From the IMG/VR virus record IMGVR_UViG_2519103024_000007: DNA of 41,481 bases. The stretch is one strand, 5' to 3'. Every line of letters begins with the position of its first letter. Position 1 is the stretch's first letter. The notes beneath the pieces are model-generated. The model searched no databases. It saw nothing but the letters and a program-made list of their open reading frames with translations, and was not told where the DNA came from. Below are positions 23,961 through 29,938 of the stretch, in pieces. Both the position numbers and the translations under genes were made by a program. Source of the stretch: a virus (Duplodnaviria; Heunggongvirae; Uroviricota; Caudoviricetes).

Positions 23961-24488
23961 ATGCAGCATTTAAAAAATATTACTGCGGGTAATCCAAAAA
24001 CTGTTGCCCAATATCAACTGACAAAAAATTTTGATGTTATCTGGTTATGGTCCGAAGAGGGAAAAAACTGGTATGAGGAAGTAAGTAATTTTCAGGAAGA
24101 CACGATAAAGATTGTTTACGATGAGAATAATATAATTGTCGGCATCACCAGAGATGCTTCAACGCTCAACCCTGAAGGTTTTAGCGTTGTCGAGGTTCCT
24201 GATATTACCGCCAACCGACGTGCTGATGACTCAGGTAAATGGATGTTTAAGGATGGTGCCGTGATTAAGCGGATTTATACGGCAGACGAACAGCTGCAAC
24301 TGGCGGAATTACAGAAGTCAGCTTTGCTTTCCGAAGCTGAAACTATCATTCAGCCACTGGAACGCTCTGTCAGACTGAATATGGCAACAGATGAGGAGCG
24401 TAGCCGACTGGAAGCATGGGAACGCTACAGTGTTCTGGTCAGCCGTGTGGATCCTGCAAATCCTGAATGGCCGGAAATGCCGCAATAA
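23961..24488 (+). CDS. G: tail fiber assembly chaperone
   Basis: 175 aa immediately after H. Confidence 0.85.
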
Positions 24489-24522
24489 GTTGTATGATCT
24501 CTGGAGTGAGCTAACGTATCTA

Positions 24523-24564
24523 TAGCACAGAGTAAAGCCTAATCTGACAGTCTGCTCTGTGCTA
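24523..24564. repeat. 10-bp-stem hairpin (TAGCACAGAG / CTCTGTGCTA) enclosing an inverted copy of the CAGACTGTCAG motif
   Basis: Perfect inverted repeat 24523-24532 / 24555-24564; loop contains CTGACAGTCTG (24544-24554), the reverse complement of the motif at 26199 and 28509. Confidence 0.75.
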
Positions 24565-24710
24565 GGAGCGGACTGACCTGCTTCCCGATGATTAATACAC
24601 AGCTATGCTAGTAATGTCCTAGACTGGCCCCCTGAATCTCCAGACAACCAATATCACTTATTTAAGTGATAGTCTTAATACTAGTTTTTAGACTAGTCAT
24701 TGGAGAGCAG

Positions 24711-25076
24711 ATGATTGATGTCTTAGGACCGGAGAAACGCAGACGGCGTACCACACAGGAAAAGATCGCAATTGTTCAGCAGAGCTTTGAACCAGGGATG
24801 ACGGTCTCCCTCGTTGCCCGGCAACACGGTGTGGCAGCCAGCCAGTTATTTCTCTGGCGTAAGCAATACCAGGAAGGAAGTCTTACTGCTGTCGCCGCCG
24901 GAGAACAGGTTGTTCCTGCCTCTGAACTTGCTGCCGCCATGAAGCAGATTAAAGAACTCCAGCGCCTGCTCGGCAAGAAAACGATGGAAAATGAACTCCT
25001 CAAAGAAGCCGTTGAATATGGACGGGCAAAAAAGTGGATAGCGCACGCGCCCTTATTGCCCGGGGATGGGGAGTAA
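24711..25076 (+). CDS. insC: IS2 transposase orfA (InsC-like, HTH)
   Basis: 121 aa from ATG 24711, [26 protein letters not shown]... Confidence 0.85.
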
Positions 25077-26135
25077 GCTTAGTCAGCCGTTGTCTCCGGG
25101 TGTCGCGTGCGCAGTTGCACGTCATTACGACGNNNNNNNNNNNNNNNNNNNNNNNNNNNNNNNNNNNNNNNNNNNNNNNNNNNNNNNNNNNNNNNNNNNN
25201 NNNNNNNNNNNNNNNNNNNNNNNNNNNNNNNNNNNNNNNNNNNNNNNNNNNNNNNNNNNNNNNNNNNNNNNNNNNNNNNNNNNNNNNNNNNNNNNNNNNN
25301 NNNNNNNNNNNNNNNNNNNNNNNNNNNNNNNNNNNNNNNNNNNNNNNNNNNNNNNNNNNNNNNNNNNNNNNNNNNNNNNNNNNNNNNNNNNNNNNNNNNN
25401 NNNNNNNNNNNNNNNNNNNNNNNNNNNNNNNNNNNNNNNNNNNNNNNNNNNNNNNNNNNNNNNNNNNNNNNNNNNNNNNNNNNNNNNNNNNNNNNNNNNN
25501 NNNNNNNNNNNNNNNNNNNNNNNNNNNNNNNNNNNNNNNNNNNNNNNNNNNNNNNNNNNNNNNNNNNNNNNNNNNNNNNNNNNNNNNNNNNNNNNNNNNN
25601 NNNNNNNNNNNNNNNNNNNNNNNNNNNNNNNNNNNNNNNNNNNNNNNNNNNNNNNNNNNNNNNNNNNNNNNNNNNNNNNNNNNNNNNNNNNNNNNNNNNN
25701 NNNNNNNNNNNNNNNNNNNNNNNNNNNNNNNNNNNNNNNNNNNNNNNNNNNNNNNNNNNATGCTGGGAGCGGTGGAACGCCGCTCGGCAACGAGCTTCCG
25801 GCGTCTCCAGTAGAGTGGCTGACGGATAATGGTTCATGCTACCGGGCTAATGAAACACGGCAGTTTGCCCGGATGTTGGGGCTTGAACCGAAGAGCACGG
25901 CGGTGCGGAGTCCGGAGAGTAACGGCATAGCAGAGAGCTTCGTGCGATAAAGCGTGACTACATCAGTGTCATGCCCAAACCAGACGGGTTAACGGCAGCA
26001 AAGAACCTTGCAGAGGCGTTCGAGCATTATAACGAATGGCATCCGCATAGTGCACTGGGTTATCGCTCGCCACGGGAATATCTGCGGCAGCAAGCCAGTA
26101 ATGGGTTAAGTGATAACAGGTGTCTGGAAATATAG
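25034..26135 (+). CDS. insD: IS2 transposase orfB (InsD-like, DDE), interrupted by assembly gap and an apparent small deletion
   Basis: N-terminal [23 protein letters not shown] and C-terminal ...[10 protein letters not shown] are on either side of the N run; premature stop at 25948-25950 (ESFVR*) where I recall extra bases in IS2. Confidence 0.6.
25133..25759. other. assembly gap (627 N)
   Basis: Uninterrupted run of n inside IS2. Confidence 1.
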
Positions 26136-26198
26136 GGGCAAATCCATGTCCGTAGATCGCTGTGTGTTGCATCCATCGGTTGAACTCACAGTCCAAAC

Positions 26199-26441: not shown

Positions 26442-27284
26442 ATGAAAAAAGAATTGTTTGGACGTTGCCCGTTTGATCTTGACGAAGATGTAAAAAAAAT
26501 AGCCGCGATAAATAAATATATCCATGCAAAATTTGAGGAGCATAAAAATAAAATAGACAACCTAAAGGGTGTGGAACAAAAATTGATGGTCTTACAGTAC
26601 TTTAATGTACTGAATGAACTTAGTAATCAGGCTATCTCTTCTTTGAATATAGGAGCCTTTTCAGCATCGGAAGTATTAGCTAGGGTTATAATAGAACAGG
26701 CTGCCAATCAATTTTATATAGCAATAGATGATGGCGAAAATGCACAAGCATTACTCAAGGCTAGTAAGAAATTAGTTCATAGTAATGGAAAACGGTGGCT
26801 GGAGTGTTTAAAATCCAAAGGAATGACTAATCCAGCAGCAAATGAAAGGATTCGCATGGGAAAAGAACTAACTGATCTATTTAATAGATTGTGGCCAAAT
26901 ACACCTGAATATCCAGGAACCAGAAGACTTTTTGAATTAATTGGCTGGGAAACACACTATCATGCCCATTACGTTCCCCTTTGTGATTCAATACATACAT
27001 TCTCTGATGATATGGTAAATATAGTATCTCTATATAATGCAATCCAAAGTGATGAAAATACTGCTATCGAATTCATTCTTGCAGTTAAACAAGAAAATAA
27101 ACGGCTGGCAATTTATAATTTTGTAATTGCTACGGCCCTTCGGTGTGAGGCCTTAGTAAATGTATTTAACTCTTTAGGTTATCAGGATATTATAACAGAA
27201 ATGACACCAACAATAGATACAGTCAACCAGACTATAATTCGATATGATGATTTTGATCATTCCAGAATTGATGATTGTCAATAA
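26442..27284 (+). CDS. hypothetical protein, 280 aa, no motif recognised (cargo gene 1)
   Basis: AT-rich ORF with strong RBS; soluble, no TM segment; no catalytic motif I can assign by eye. Confidence 0.6.
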   Translation: MKKELFGRCPFDLDEDVKKIAAINKYIHAKFEEHKNKIDNLKGVEQKLMVLQYFNVLNELSNQAISSLNIGAFSASEVLARVIIEQAANQFYIAIDDGENAQALLKASKKLVHSNGKRWLECLKSKGMTNPAANERIRMGKELTDLFNRLWPNTPEYPGTRRLFELIGWETHYHAHYVPLCDSIHTFSDDMVNIVSLYNAIQSDENTAIEFILAVKQENKRLAIYNFVIATALRCEALVNVFNSLGYQDIITEMTPTIDTVNQTIIRYDDFDHSRIDDCQ

Positions 27285-27390
27285 TTAATTGACAGAATAC
27301 GTACATGCGCAACAACTAGTGATAGTTGACTTATTTTCGCTCTTGAGAGACAACCATACTCAAATCTCCCACATTGCAGGAGATTTGAAT

Positions 27391-27975
27391 ATGAAAACGT
27401 CACCGTGGAATAAAGACCGTACCATCGGTCAAAAAAGGCCACTTCAGATATTTCATATCTGGGGGATCCGGATTAGACTTGAGTTGGAAGGTAAAACACG
27501 CGATCTAGCTCTGTTCAACATGGCTTTGGACACTAAGCTACGGGGCTGTGATTTGGTCAAACTCAAAGTATCAGATGCTGCATATGGCAGTTCTGTCTCA
27601 AGCAGAGCAACGGTGTTGCAACAGAAAACCGGCAGCCCTGTCCAATTTGAGATAACCAAAGGGACAAGGGAAGCGGTTACTGCATTGATAAAGCTCGGCA
27701 ACTGGCATAGTAAAGGCTTCCTGTTCCGCTCTCGGGTCGGAACTAACCACCATATATCAACCCGGCAATACAACCGAATTTTTCATGGGTGGGTAGAAAA
27801 GCTTGGTCTCGAAGATTCGCTGTACAGCACACATTCCATGAGAAGAACAAAACCTTACTTAATCTACAAGAAAACCAAGAGTCTCCGGGTGATCCAACTT
27901 CTGTTGGGCCATAAGAAACTGGAAAGCACAGTCCGTTATTTGGGCATTGAAGTCGATATAGAAGGTCTCTTTTAA
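27391..27975 (+). CDS. short tyrosine recombinase, catalytic domain only (FimB/FimE-like size)
   Basis: ATG 27391 with RBS AGGAG 8 nt upstream (track ORF starts at upstream TTG 27289); box I LRGCDLVKL, conserved K in QKTG, box II HSMRRT...LLGH...TVRY; about 194 aa, no N-terminal core-binding domain. Confidence 0.65.
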   Translation: MKTSPWNKDRTIGQKRPLQIFHIWGIRIRLELEGKTRDLALFNMALDTKLRGCDLVKLKVSDAAYGSSVSSRATVLQQKTGSPVQFEITKGTREAVTALIKLGNWHSKGFLFRSRVGTNHHISTRQYNRIFHGWVEKLGLEDSLYSTHSMRRTKPYLIYKKTKSLRVIQLLLGHKKLESTVRYLGIEVDIEGLF

Positions 27976-27997
27976 GTTATGGGGGCTGATTTTATAT

Positions 27998-28387
27998 TCA
28001 ATAGCGTATGCTCATCGAAGAAATAAACTCATAAAATGTAAAGACAGCCAGCAAAAACATACAGATAAAGATAAGGGAAATAGCACACTTAACTAAGGGC
28101 TGAACCCCCCGAGGTGTTCCCCATGGTTTAGACATTTGGGTTATAACCCAAATAAATAAGGCCACAAAACAGCAAACACCAGCCAATCCGAGCAGAGATA
28201 TTATGACAACTCCAAACAGATTTCCAACATCTAGTTTATCTGTTTTTGCAACTAGGGTTAACAAACCAGCAATAATAGTTGCAATCGATATTCCCGCAAT
28301 GGTTGTGAGATCGGCGATAACAGCCAGTTTTTCTTTAGTATTTCCTTGAGTAAAGACCTCTAAAATTGATTTCATGGAAATAACCAC
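27998..28387 (-). CDS. small membrane protein, three predicted TM helices (cargo gene 3)
   Basis: 129-aa ORF convergent with the recombinase gene; three long hydrophobic stretches. Confidence 0.5.
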   Translation of the reverse strand: MVISMKSILEVFTQGNTKEKLAVIADLTTIAGISIATIIAGLLTLVAKTDKLDVGNLFGVVIISLLGLAGVCCFVALFIWVITQMSKPWGTPRGVQPLVKCAISLIFICMFLLAVFTFYEFISSMSIRY

Positions 28388-28508
28388 CTACTATCGATTA
28401 TATTCAGGAGCTTTTTATCATAACGATATCAGATAGATAAGGACATTGTAATATTTTGGATGATTTAAACTTGCTTTTGTAACTCTAATGTCCACTTTTC
28501 GCTCAAAG

Positions 28509-28528
28509 CAGACTGTCAGGTTTGATAG
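28509..28528 (+). repeat. recombination-site-like repeat, copy 2: CAGACTGTCAG-g-TTTGATAG
   Basis: Direct-orientation partner of 26199-26219; followed by a second TGTCAG at 28548-28553. Confidence 0.8.
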
Positions 28529-28582
28529 CATTTGGGCTATGTAAATTGTCAGGCGGAAAATGAGTGAGTACAAATCAGGACA

Positions 28583-28609
28583 GGCGGGCGAATTGCCCGC
28601 CTTTTCTTT
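28583..28609 (+). terminator. rho-independent terminator candidate
   Basis: GGCGGGC-gaatt-GCCCGCC stem-loop followed by TTTTCTTT, about 100 nt upstream of FI. Confidence 0.5.
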
Positions 28610-28705: not shown

Positions 28706-29938
28706 ATGAGTGACTATCATCATGGCGTGCAGGTGCTGGAGATTAACGACGGCACCCGCGTCATTTCCACCGTATCCACTGCCATTGTCGGCATGGTCTG
28801 CACGGCCAGCGATGCGGATGCGGAAACCTTCCCCCTCAATAAACCGGTGCTGATTACCAATGTGCAAAGCGCAATTGCAAAGGCCGGTAAAAAAGGCACG
28901 CTGGCGGCATCGTTGCAGGCCATCGCTGACCAGTCAAAACCGGTCACCGTTGTCGTGCGCGTGGAAGACTGCACCGGTGATGACGAGGAAACGAAACTCG
29001 CGCAGACCGTTTCCAATATCATCGGCACCACCGACGAAAACGGTCAGTACACCGGACTAAAAGCCCTGCTGGCGGCGGAGTCGGTAACCGGTGTTAAACC
29101 GCGTATTCTCGGTGTGCCGGGACTGGATACCAAAGAGGTGGCTGTTGCACTGGCATCCGTCTGTCAGAAGCTGCGCGCTTTCGGATATATCAGCGCATGG
29201 GGCTGTAAGACCATTTCCGAGGTGAAAGCCTACCGCCAGAATTTCAGCCAGCGTGAGCTGATGGTCATCTGGCCGGATTTCCTCGCATGGGATACGGTCA
29301 CCAGTACCACCGCTACCGCGTATGCCACCGCCCGTGCGCTGGGTCTGCGCGCTAAAATCGACCAGGAGCAGGGCTGGCATAAAACGCTGTCCAACGTCGG
29401 GGTAAACGGTGTTACCGGCATCAGCGCATCTGTATTCTGGGATTTGCAGGAGTCCGGCACCGATGCTGACCTGCTTAACGAGTCAGGCGTCACTACGCTG
29501 ATTCGCCGCGACGGTTTCCGATTCTGGGGTAACCGTACCTGCTCTGATGACCCGCTGTTCCTCTTTGAAAACTACACCCGCACCGCGCAGGTACTGGCTG
29601 ACACGATGGCTGAGGCGCACATGTGGGCGGTGGACAAGCCCATCACCGCAACGCTGATTCGCGACATCGTTGACGGCATCAATGCCAAATTCCGTGAGCT
29701 GAAAACAAACGGCTATATCGTGGATGCGACCTGCTGGTTCAGCGAAGAATCCAACGATGCGGAAACCCTCAAGGCCGGAAAACTGTATATCGACTACGAC
29801 TATACACCGGTGCCTCCTCTTGAAAACCTGACCCTGCGCCAGCGTATTACCGATAAATACCTGGCAAATCTGGTCACCTCGGTTAACAGCAATTATAAGG
29901 AGCCTGACCGATGGCAATGCCGCGCAAACTCAAGTTAA
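28706..29938 (+). CDS. FI: tail sheath protein
   Basis: 410 aa as read; 3' end overlaps FII by 28 nt, so the true stop may differ. Confidence 0.9.
   Translation: MSDYHHGVQVLEINDGTRVISTVSTAIVGMVCTASDADAETFPLNKPVLITNVQSAIAKAGKKGTLAASLQAIADQSKPVTVVVRVEDCTGDDEETKLAQTVSNIIGTTDENGQYTGLKALLAAESVTGVKPRILGVPGLDTKEVAVALASVCQKLRAFGYISAWGCKTISEVKAYRQNFSQRELMVIWPDFLAWDTVTSTTATAYATARALGLRAKIDQEQGWHKTLSNVGVNGVTGISASVFWDLQESGTDADLLNESGVTTLIRRDGFRFWGNRTCSDDPLFLFENYTRTAQVLADTMAEAHMWAVDKPITATLIRDIVDGINAKFRELKTNGYIVDATCWFSEESNDAETLKAGKLYIDYDYTPVPPLENLTLRQRITDKYLANLVTSVNSNYKEPDRWQCRANSS

Follow-up and report, generated by a model that had tools for sequence, protein, structure and literature searches.

Introduction

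Among the described systems closest in design to the gene reported here are the short fimbrial recombinases FimB and FimE. The Fim enzymes invert a single 314-bp promoter element adjoining their genes. Here we analyze a tyrosine recombinase gene in IMG/VR record IMGVR_UViG_2519103024_000007, a 41,481-nt stretch of tailed-phage DNA (Caudoviricetes) that we refer to throughout as the window. The gene belongs to a family that resembles FimB/FimE in its length of ~200 aa, its lack of a core-binding domain, its catalytic residues and its association with short sites, but that differs in lying within cassette arrays with two types of site, which we call LH and RH, and no invertible element; in a multiple alignment, FimB/FimE are just 19–25% identical to the window protein. 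Judged from sequence comparison, and with a probability that we put at about 60%, the window gene is a decayed member of a catalytic-domain-only family that acts at LH and RH in a recombinase-driven gene-cassette system, exchanging cassettes rather than inverting DNA.

Integrons share part of this organization, as they too combine a tyrosine recombinase with cassette arrays rich in defence genes, and their imperfect palindromes, like the LH/RH junctions, consist of two simple sites and have the attC-like fold. They differ in that the LH/RH recombinase, at half the size, has neither a core-binding domain nor an IntI-specific signature and is encoded inside the junction rather than beside an attI site with a promoter. 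Moreover, both halves of an LH/RH junction appear to be crossover points that can stand kilobases apart, and the cassette genes point in either direction. Gene modules bounded by short recombination sites are also known from Acinetobacter plasmids, where pdif modules carry short dif-like sites for the two-domain XerC/XerD of the host and need no transposase of their own to pass from one replicon to another; LH and RH, in contrast, are not dif-like and have a dedicated one-domain recombinase gene alongside. Finally, in engineered cassette exchange with Cre or Flp, heterospecific lox or FRT sites with the same arms and incompatible spacers flank an exchangeable segment, an arrangement that LH and RH, with their different cores, appear to resemble. 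That design is artificial and uses two-domain recombinases and 34-bp sites, whereas LH/RH is natural and known here from comparison.

The window gene lies in a tail-gene hotspot of a P2-like prophage, the same locus that holds the fun gene in P2. According to the account given in a review, Nilsson et al. (2004, Mol Biol Evol 21:1) found inverted repeats around fun and proposed a site-specific exchange (PMC8987985); most likely, RH and LH are the repeats in question. In a 2026 study covering thousands of P2 and P4 elements, how cargo is exchanged is still described as unknown, and LH and RH sites go unmentioned; with regard to the movement of hotspot cargo, that study finds transposons to be rare and homologous recombination to be without flanking homology (PMC13586616). 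Our literature search did not turn up any account of the recombinase family, the two site types, attC-like sites in P2 or such arrays outside P2.

Results

A tyrosine recombinase reduced to its catalytic domain

The open reading frame (ORF) runs from an ATG at 27391 to a stop codon at 27973–27975 and encodes 194 aa. An AGGAG lies 7 nt 5' of the ATG, in keeping with the good ribosome-binding site (RBS) noted in the initial annotation, and RefSeq calls the identical ORF, labeled 'tyrosine-type recombinase/integrase'. Residues 35–184 match Pfam family PF00589 (E = 9.6e-18; 65 bits against a cut-off of 27.1), and a Pfam scan of the 194-aa protein returned no other domain. The full catalytic set that had been read from the letters is present: R51 (in LRGCDL), K79 (QQKTG), H148 and R151 (HSMRRT), H174 (LLGH) and Y183 (VRY). 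These residues are invariant or almost so in the family alignments and line up with those of XerD and FimB/FimE.

An N-terminal core-binding domain (~100 aa, as in XerC, XerD and XerA) was not found, as had been proposed at the outset. In the family profile, residues 36–186 align to residues 131–280 of XerD, i.e., to the catalytic domain only, and just ~17–35 residues precede the first catalytic-domain helices. Xer models score the window protein at 25–49 bits, against cut-offs of 220–335. The neighboring DUF5677 gene stops 106 nt 5' of the recombinase ATG, and there is therefore no room upstream for a hidden N-terminal domain. AlphaFold2 models reached a predicted local distance difference test score (pLDDT) of 46 with 32 close homologues and of 62 with 107 homologues. 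When the latter model was submitted to Foldseek, the matches at E ≤ 0.001, and nearly all of the listed ones, were catalytic domains of tyrosine recombinases (XerA, lambda Int, Cre), and the best target-normalized score belonged to the isolated catalytic core of lambda Int. Structure prediction, suggested earlier as a check, agrees in this respect with the domain assignment, although the model itself is of moderate quality.

The short form is widespread and conserved

A search over 5.8 billion proteins returned thousands of matches, the best 120 of which are 72–100% identical to the window protein and almost all 200 aa long. An exhaustive search yielded 332 clusters (50% identity) at E<1e-30; most of the listed ones measure ~160–290 aa, and the intact ones share their start point. 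Homologues, thousands of them of ~200 aa, are spread through the Gammaproteobacteria, and a copy of the family gene is present in 845 of 5426 complete E. coli genomes. When one genome per species was taken, 179 stretches coding for a relative were obtained. Outside the window, homologues reside in islands integrated at transfer-messenger RNA (tmRNA) genes, cargo regions of integrative and conjugative elements (ICEs), lambdoid prophages, CP4-type islands, a conjugative plasmid and the end of a Mu-like prophage.

Among 90 loci, 73 encode a protein of exactly 200 aa with a common N-terminus and a conserved 5' leader, while 13 hold pseudogenes. The N-terminus MxxSPWNK and an RBS-bearing leader are common to relatives in >60 species, and the relatives end in ...LGIEVDDALEISESIEV. 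The window protein carries the family marks at its 5' side, namely MxxSPWNK and the conserved leader hairpin, and is at least 72% identical to members. By these comparisons the short form is the family norm. The ratio of nonsynonymous to synonymous substitution rates (dN/dS) against the main family is 0.04–0.10, and DNA identity among distant members (69–76%) lies below their protein identity (79–83%); the family is under strong purifying selection.

The leader palindrome (15–19 bp) is also family-wide, occupying the same position in ~50 related loci, and 2 of its 11 consensus pairs show compensatory changes. In the window, it pairs with both the start codon and the Shine-Dalgarno sequence (Table 1), which suggests tight translational control of the recombinase; the palindrome may serve as a translational lock or as an operator.

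Two palindromic site types bound the gene and the cassettes around it

We compared 66 distinct contexts of the gene (65 loci plus the window). The gene sits in a unit of ~710 bp, in which conservation sets in at about −62 from the ATG and ends about +45 past the stop codon, with unrelated sequence on either side. The left end of the unit reads (AAC)GTCCGCT-yy-TCGCTCA-y-AaGGGAC and the right end hairpin-...-yy-GTGCCAG-r-AGCGGAC(GTT). Searches with profiles of these ends uncovered extra copies near the genes, with half-site matches favoring the gene's strand by 33:1 and 114:7. Within 10 kb of the genes there are ~213 site matches, including 104 full sites, 91 of which are on the strand of the gene and 13 on the opposite one.

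The sites fall into two types, each a 24-bp palindromic sequence: LH, (AAY)GTCCGCT-yy-TCGCTCA-y-AGCGGAC, and RH, GTCCGCT-yy-GTGCCAG-r-AGCGGAC(RTT). Both have inverted arms of 7–10 bp that enclose an asymmetric 7-bp core; each core is invariant, but LH and RH do not have the same one (TCGCTCA vs GTGCCAG). Arms of this length fit a recombinase consisting of the catalytic domain only. In 72 of 73 parsed sites the arms stand exactly 10 nt apart, and the design of inverted arms, 10-nt spacing and two invariant cores is kept over orders of bacteria. Around the gene, LH is recognizable in 51 of the 66 contexts, RH in 59 and both in 48. Where no gene intervenes, the two types form a junction of ~69 nt, GTCCGCT yyTCGCTCAy AGCGGAC, a loop of ~18 nt, and GTCCGCT yyGTGCCAGr AGCGGAC. 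Use of the sites by Xer was considered and rejected; LH and RH are unlike dif.

The segments between sites, which we call cassettes, have a median length of 2.0 kb and show no strand bias, with 79 ORFs on the plus and 79 on the minus strand. Seven of 10 sampled cassette genes belong to the GmrSD_N, DUF4238, SMODS, RnlA toxin, HNH, LysE and arginase families, and the other three have no Pfam match; overall, the cargo takes in many defence genes. The arrays themselves lie inside prophages, genomic islands, ICEs and plasmids.

Several smaller features of the arrays were recorded. The ~18-nt junction loop is fairly conserved (CTTCAGCTCAGTTAGCTT; ~73 parsed sites in loci L011–L093) and can lengthen the inner stem by AGCT/AGCT; this conservation hints at a functional role such as an accessory-protein site or a terminator or insulator. 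An Rfam scan of three array loci gave no match to the junction and only an unrelated C4 antisense RNA (RF01695, 59.7 bits), close to an array of Enterobacter adelaidei (L063, 13678–13764, minus strand), which suggests that this array is hosted by a P1/P7-like element. Some arrays hold two recombinase units on the same strand, 3–5 kb apart (L015 at 10001 and 13856, L043 at 10001 and 14808, and L062, L077, L079 and L083); the paired units come from different sub-lineages (e.g., 94% and 81% identical to the window protein), and some of the second copies are truncated.

Homology breaks at the site cores

We compared the window with >1300 E. coli genomes that carry P2-like prophages. The recombinase gene lies in the variable region between genes G and FI, together with the DUF5677 gene and a gene for a 129-aa protein, and this region is bordered by a solo RH and a solo LH (Table 1). 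In prophages with other cargo, homology to the window stops at 24562–24573 and returns at 28484–28504, coinciding with these two sites. Alignment of five P2 hotspots shows that the phage backbone retains the inner arm and the adjoining part of the spacer, while the outer arm differs from cargo to cargo. In one phage (L094), a full LH-loop-RH junction parts two cassettes.

The same limits are found between phages and between genera. The window cargo matches a segment of a Buttiauxella array (L011) at 96.6% DNA identity over 1876 bp, which holds the DUF5677 gene and the recombinase gene together, and this homology starts within the RH spacer. In other P2-like contigs, a full junction comes after the module with the 129-aa gene, and then a further cassette and a terminal LH; the window and one such contig (L110) differ by exactly one cassette. 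At this point the LH of the window keeps the outer arm GTCCACT, and its inner arm has changed from AGCGGAC to the AGCAGAC of the backbone. On this comparison, the window junction is the exact product expected from recombination of LH with LH.

Units with the same interior and unrelated flanks allow the limits to be placed more finely. Divergence begins at RH spacer positions 9–10 in 183 of 299 pairs, and it ceases at LH spacer positions 1–2 in 127 of 197 pairs, which argues that exchange occurs within the invariant cores TCGCTCA and GTGCCAG, where the breakpoints between phages and between genera also fall. Exchange inside 7-bp cores would be the signature expected of strand exchange by a tyrosine recombinase in its overlap region. 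When the flanks of 101 junctions were compared all against all, they had too few cassettes in common for breakpoint mapping because every locus came from a different species.

A proposed model of two-site cassette exchange

These observations point to the excision, insertion and exchange of cassettes at LH and RH as the likeliest role of the family. In the model that we propose, recombinase dimers would bind the arms and exchange strands inside the 7-bp core. LH would pair with LH only and RH with RH only; given their different cores, LH and RH would not be expected to recombine with each other. Recombination between two like sites would excise a cassette as a circle or insert one, whereas one LH event combined with one RH event would swap a cassette between replicons. 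The P2 tail hotspot would then act as a slot of the form backbone-RH, cargo, LH-backbone. As the recombinase gene itself occupies the interior of a junction, the flanking cassettes could change while the gene stays in place.

The window copy has lost its 3' end

The window gene departs from this pattern at its 3' end. Homology to all relatives ends at nt 27957, after D189; the conserved C-terminus of the 200-aa form, DDALEISESIEV, is missing and the tail has been swapped. The size given in the initial annotation is thus that of an ORF complete at its 5' end and truncated at its 3' end relative to its 200-aa relatives. The sequence joined after 27957 is the 3' half of a terminator hairpin that belongs to the neighboring module and is intact in P2-like viral contigs (L109–L112), and the event was therefore probably an illegitimate deletion rather than one at a site. 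The comparison indicates that this deletion removed the post-stop hairpin and the RH together with the preceding 11 codons, and that it cut into the next cassette. The flanking typical of the family, an LH upstream and a hairpin with RH downstream, is accordingly incomplete in the window, where the LH has a degenerate outer arm and the hairpin and RH are absent. In addition, the window copy has five substitutions at columns that are ≥95% conserved (S21F, S48T, L105W, D109G and N164S), against a family median of one deviation, and a dN/dS as high as 0.59 against its nearest relative also speaks for decay. Taken together, it is probably a decaying passenger or relic, weak or inactive and of little functional consequence.

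Weighing of alternative explanations

Because the gene lies in prophage cargo near an insertion sequence (IS), it could be the 5'-truncated remnant of a full-length phage integrase. This is scarcely tenable in view of the 106 nt left by the upstream gene, and the shared length, N-terminus, leader and purifying selection of the relatives rule it out. The initial annotation suggested a dedicated invertase like FimB/FimE. Such an enzyme would flip DNA between inverted repeats close by and so turn a gene on or off, and the equal size and architecture, the 26% identity of FimE over 155 aa and the 13 oppositely oriented sites among 104, which make inversions in some arrays conceivable, speak for it. 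Nonetheless, we regard it as highly improbable. The FimB/FimE models NF007371 and NF007370 reach only 22.9 and 14.4 bits, where their cut-offs are 222 and 221, and a BLASTP comparison with FimB gives no significant match; there is no segment beside the gene that could invert between inverted repeats; and in every E. coli genome that carries it, the cargo has a single orientation with respect to both phage junctions (36 genomes for the cargo itself, 38 and 45 for the junctions). The signature of the family is instead that of cassette arrays, unrelated flanks and two kinds of site with different cores. In the suggested alignment with FimB/FimE and XerD, these proteins share the catalytic residues.

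The remaining explanations accept the arrays and differ in what moves. In an integron-like system, the ~69-nt junction would be recombined as a folded single strand at one end, with each cassette carrying its downstream junction, and the junction is indeed composed of two simple sites with AAC...GTT ends. We nevertheless consider this unlikely, as RH and LH occur as separate borders, ~4 kb apart in the window and ~1–3.5 kb apart in other hotspots, breakpoints fall in both sites, and cassette ORFs have no preferred strand. The integron integrase models TIGR02249 and NF011946 give 18 bits against cut-offs of 265 and 435, over residues 112–184 only, and IntI (PDB 2a3v) is a weak structural match in Foldseek (E = 0.14). 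Distinctly unlikely, in our view, is that the repeats serve as patches of homology for RecA or phage recombinases, with the recombinase gene as a passenger or regulator. Sites are widely found without the gene, and the resolution of the breakpoints is too coarse to argue against short-homology recombination; on the other hand, a 24-bp repeat makes a very short substrate for homologous recombination, the sites keep their design across bacterial orders, and the gene is constantly placed between one LH and one RH. A selfish palindromic element, in which an LH-X-RH unit (X being the gene or the 18-nt loop) is mobile in the manner of an IS with its miniature inverted-repeat transposable elements or of a RAYT with its REPINs and the cassettes are incidental, would account for the sharp ends and unrelated flanks of the gene unit, for its numerous short gene-less versions and for the frequency of pseudogenized copies (13/90). 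It is very unlikely given that the order in the P2 hotspot is RH...cargo...LH, opposite to that of an inserted element, that the outer arms move with the cargo, that the same cargo is found behind differing junction interiors, and that no precise 69-nt or 710-bp insertion with a target duplication was seen between the orthologous regions compared here.

Several observations weigh against cassette exchange by a decayed member of the family. The link between family and sites is one of association, consisting of constant physical embedding and co-occurrence, and the gene-bearing unit has poor inner arms (AAGGGAC on the left, a hairpin instead of a3 on the right). Sites are far commoner than the gene, and many P2-like phages have RH and LH but no recombinase: 50,697 phage records contain three distant recombinase homologues, whereas at least 61 records of P2-like phages have an LH border, so that phages hold the slots and seldom the enzyme. 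As single-stranded DNA, the full junction folds like attC (−19.5 kcal/mol, z −4.8), with unpaired spacers between an outer stem and an inner stem that ends in a loop. Moreover, only the inner arms (a2/a3) covary, with 14 compensated changes where 7.3 were expected, a value reached by 2 of 2000 shuffles, while a1/a2, a3/a4 and a1/a4 gave no signal. For full junctions, a single-stranded, integron-like route therefore keeps some likelihood. The structural model with pLDDT 62 is only moderate, with a poor C-terminal third, and is usable for residues 15–145. As to decay, the dN/dS of 0.59 between the window copy and its nearest relative is based on few substitutions, and the catalytic residues are intact in an ORF that is identical in 36 genomes, so the window ORF may still be active. 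Between decay and continued activity, decay is the more likely reading.

Wider scope of the proposed system

If the cassette-exchange reading is extended from the window to the family as a whole, recombinases and LH/RH sites would constitute a natural two-site cassette-exchange system, distinct from integrons, that moves cargo such as anti-phage defence genes from the hotspot of one mobile element to that of another, unrelated one (the P2 tail hotspot, lambdoid and Mu-like prophages, CP4-type islands, ICEs and plasmids), a proposition to which we give roughly even odds. Were this so, it would supply the mechanism that recent hotspot studies call missing, at loci in prophages, satellites and islands that hold much of the bacterial anti-phage arsenal, and it would add to integrons a second natural gene-cassette system with a concrete, testable mechanism. 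LH and RH would also offer a simple annotation marker for the limits of cassettes, and so small a recombinase-and-site pair could, if it works as proposed, serve in engineering.

Layout of the window hotspot

The positions of the features discussed above are collected in Table 1. The solo RH begins 61 nt past the stop codon of G, and the solo LH ends 192 nt ahead of FI.

Table 1. Features of the P2 tail hotspot and the recombinase gene in the window
Feature	Position	Strand	Remarks
P2 backbone tail fibre assembly gene G	23961–24488	+	
Solo RH, GTCTGCTCTGTGCTAGGAGCGGAC	24550–24573	+	Left border of cargo; 2 mismatches to consensus, 0 chance matches expected
Remnant segment of 46 nt plus start of partial LH (AAT GTCC...)	24574–24619	+	Resumes at 26147–26161 (TGTCCGTAGATCGCT) past the IS
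IS2 (IS3-family) insertion	24620–26146		5-bp target duplication TGTCC; sits in partial LH remnant
DUF5677 cargo gene	26442–27284	+	280 aa; PF18928, E = 8e-10; phrog_4167
LH of the recombinase unit, degenerate	27328–27351	+	Outer arm GACTTAT instead of GTCCGCT; spacer TTTCGCTCTT; inner arm GAGAGAC
Leader hairpin/palindrome	27354–27394	+	19-pair stem; CAU and CUCC pair with start AUG and Shine-Dalgarno GGAG
Tyrosine recombinase ORF	27391–27975	+	194 aa, catalytic domain alone; 3'-altered member of ~200-aa family
Foreign 3' end, codons IEGLF plus stop	27958–27975	+	Stands in for the family's last 11 codons, post-stop hairpin and RH
Cargo gene for predicted membrane protein	27998–28387	−	129 aa; phrog_4155; in separate module 27957–28513
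Solo LH, GTCCACTTTTCGCTCAAAGCAGAC	28490–28513	+	Right border of cargo; 3 mismatches to consensus, 0 chance matches expected
P2 backbone tail sheath gene FI	28706–29938	+	Terminator at 28582–28602 ahead of it

The remnant segment next to the solo RH exists in uninterrupted form in two other loci (L001 and L011), and the same segment stands ahead of intact recombinase units in L017 and L019. The IS2 copy that splits it is absent from the otherwise identical locus of E. coli ATCC 11775, and its middle (~25130–25780) is masked with N in the window. A megablast search of the locus against phage records gave no match.

With respect to the cargo, PADLOC returned no match for the recombinase and its two neighbors. 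A DUF5677 ORF near serine recombinases was picked as a candidate anti-phage gene in a 2025 preprint (PMC12632615). The module that carries the 129-aa gene also occurs alone, in the P2-like viral contigs L109–L112. In other P2-like phages the phrog_4155 gene is paired with a same-strand ORF of 102 aa (in L110, 4004–4381 and 4491–4799); this partner was lost from the window through the same deletion that clipped the recombinase.

The backbone next to the two borders contains palindromes as well. One, TGGCACAGAG...CTCTGTGCyA, overlaps the RH (24515–24566), and another, TGTCAGATTTGATAGC...GCTATGTAAATTGTCAG, follows the LH (28514–28560) and is itself followed by a possible degenerate RH (TGTCAG-CGGAA).

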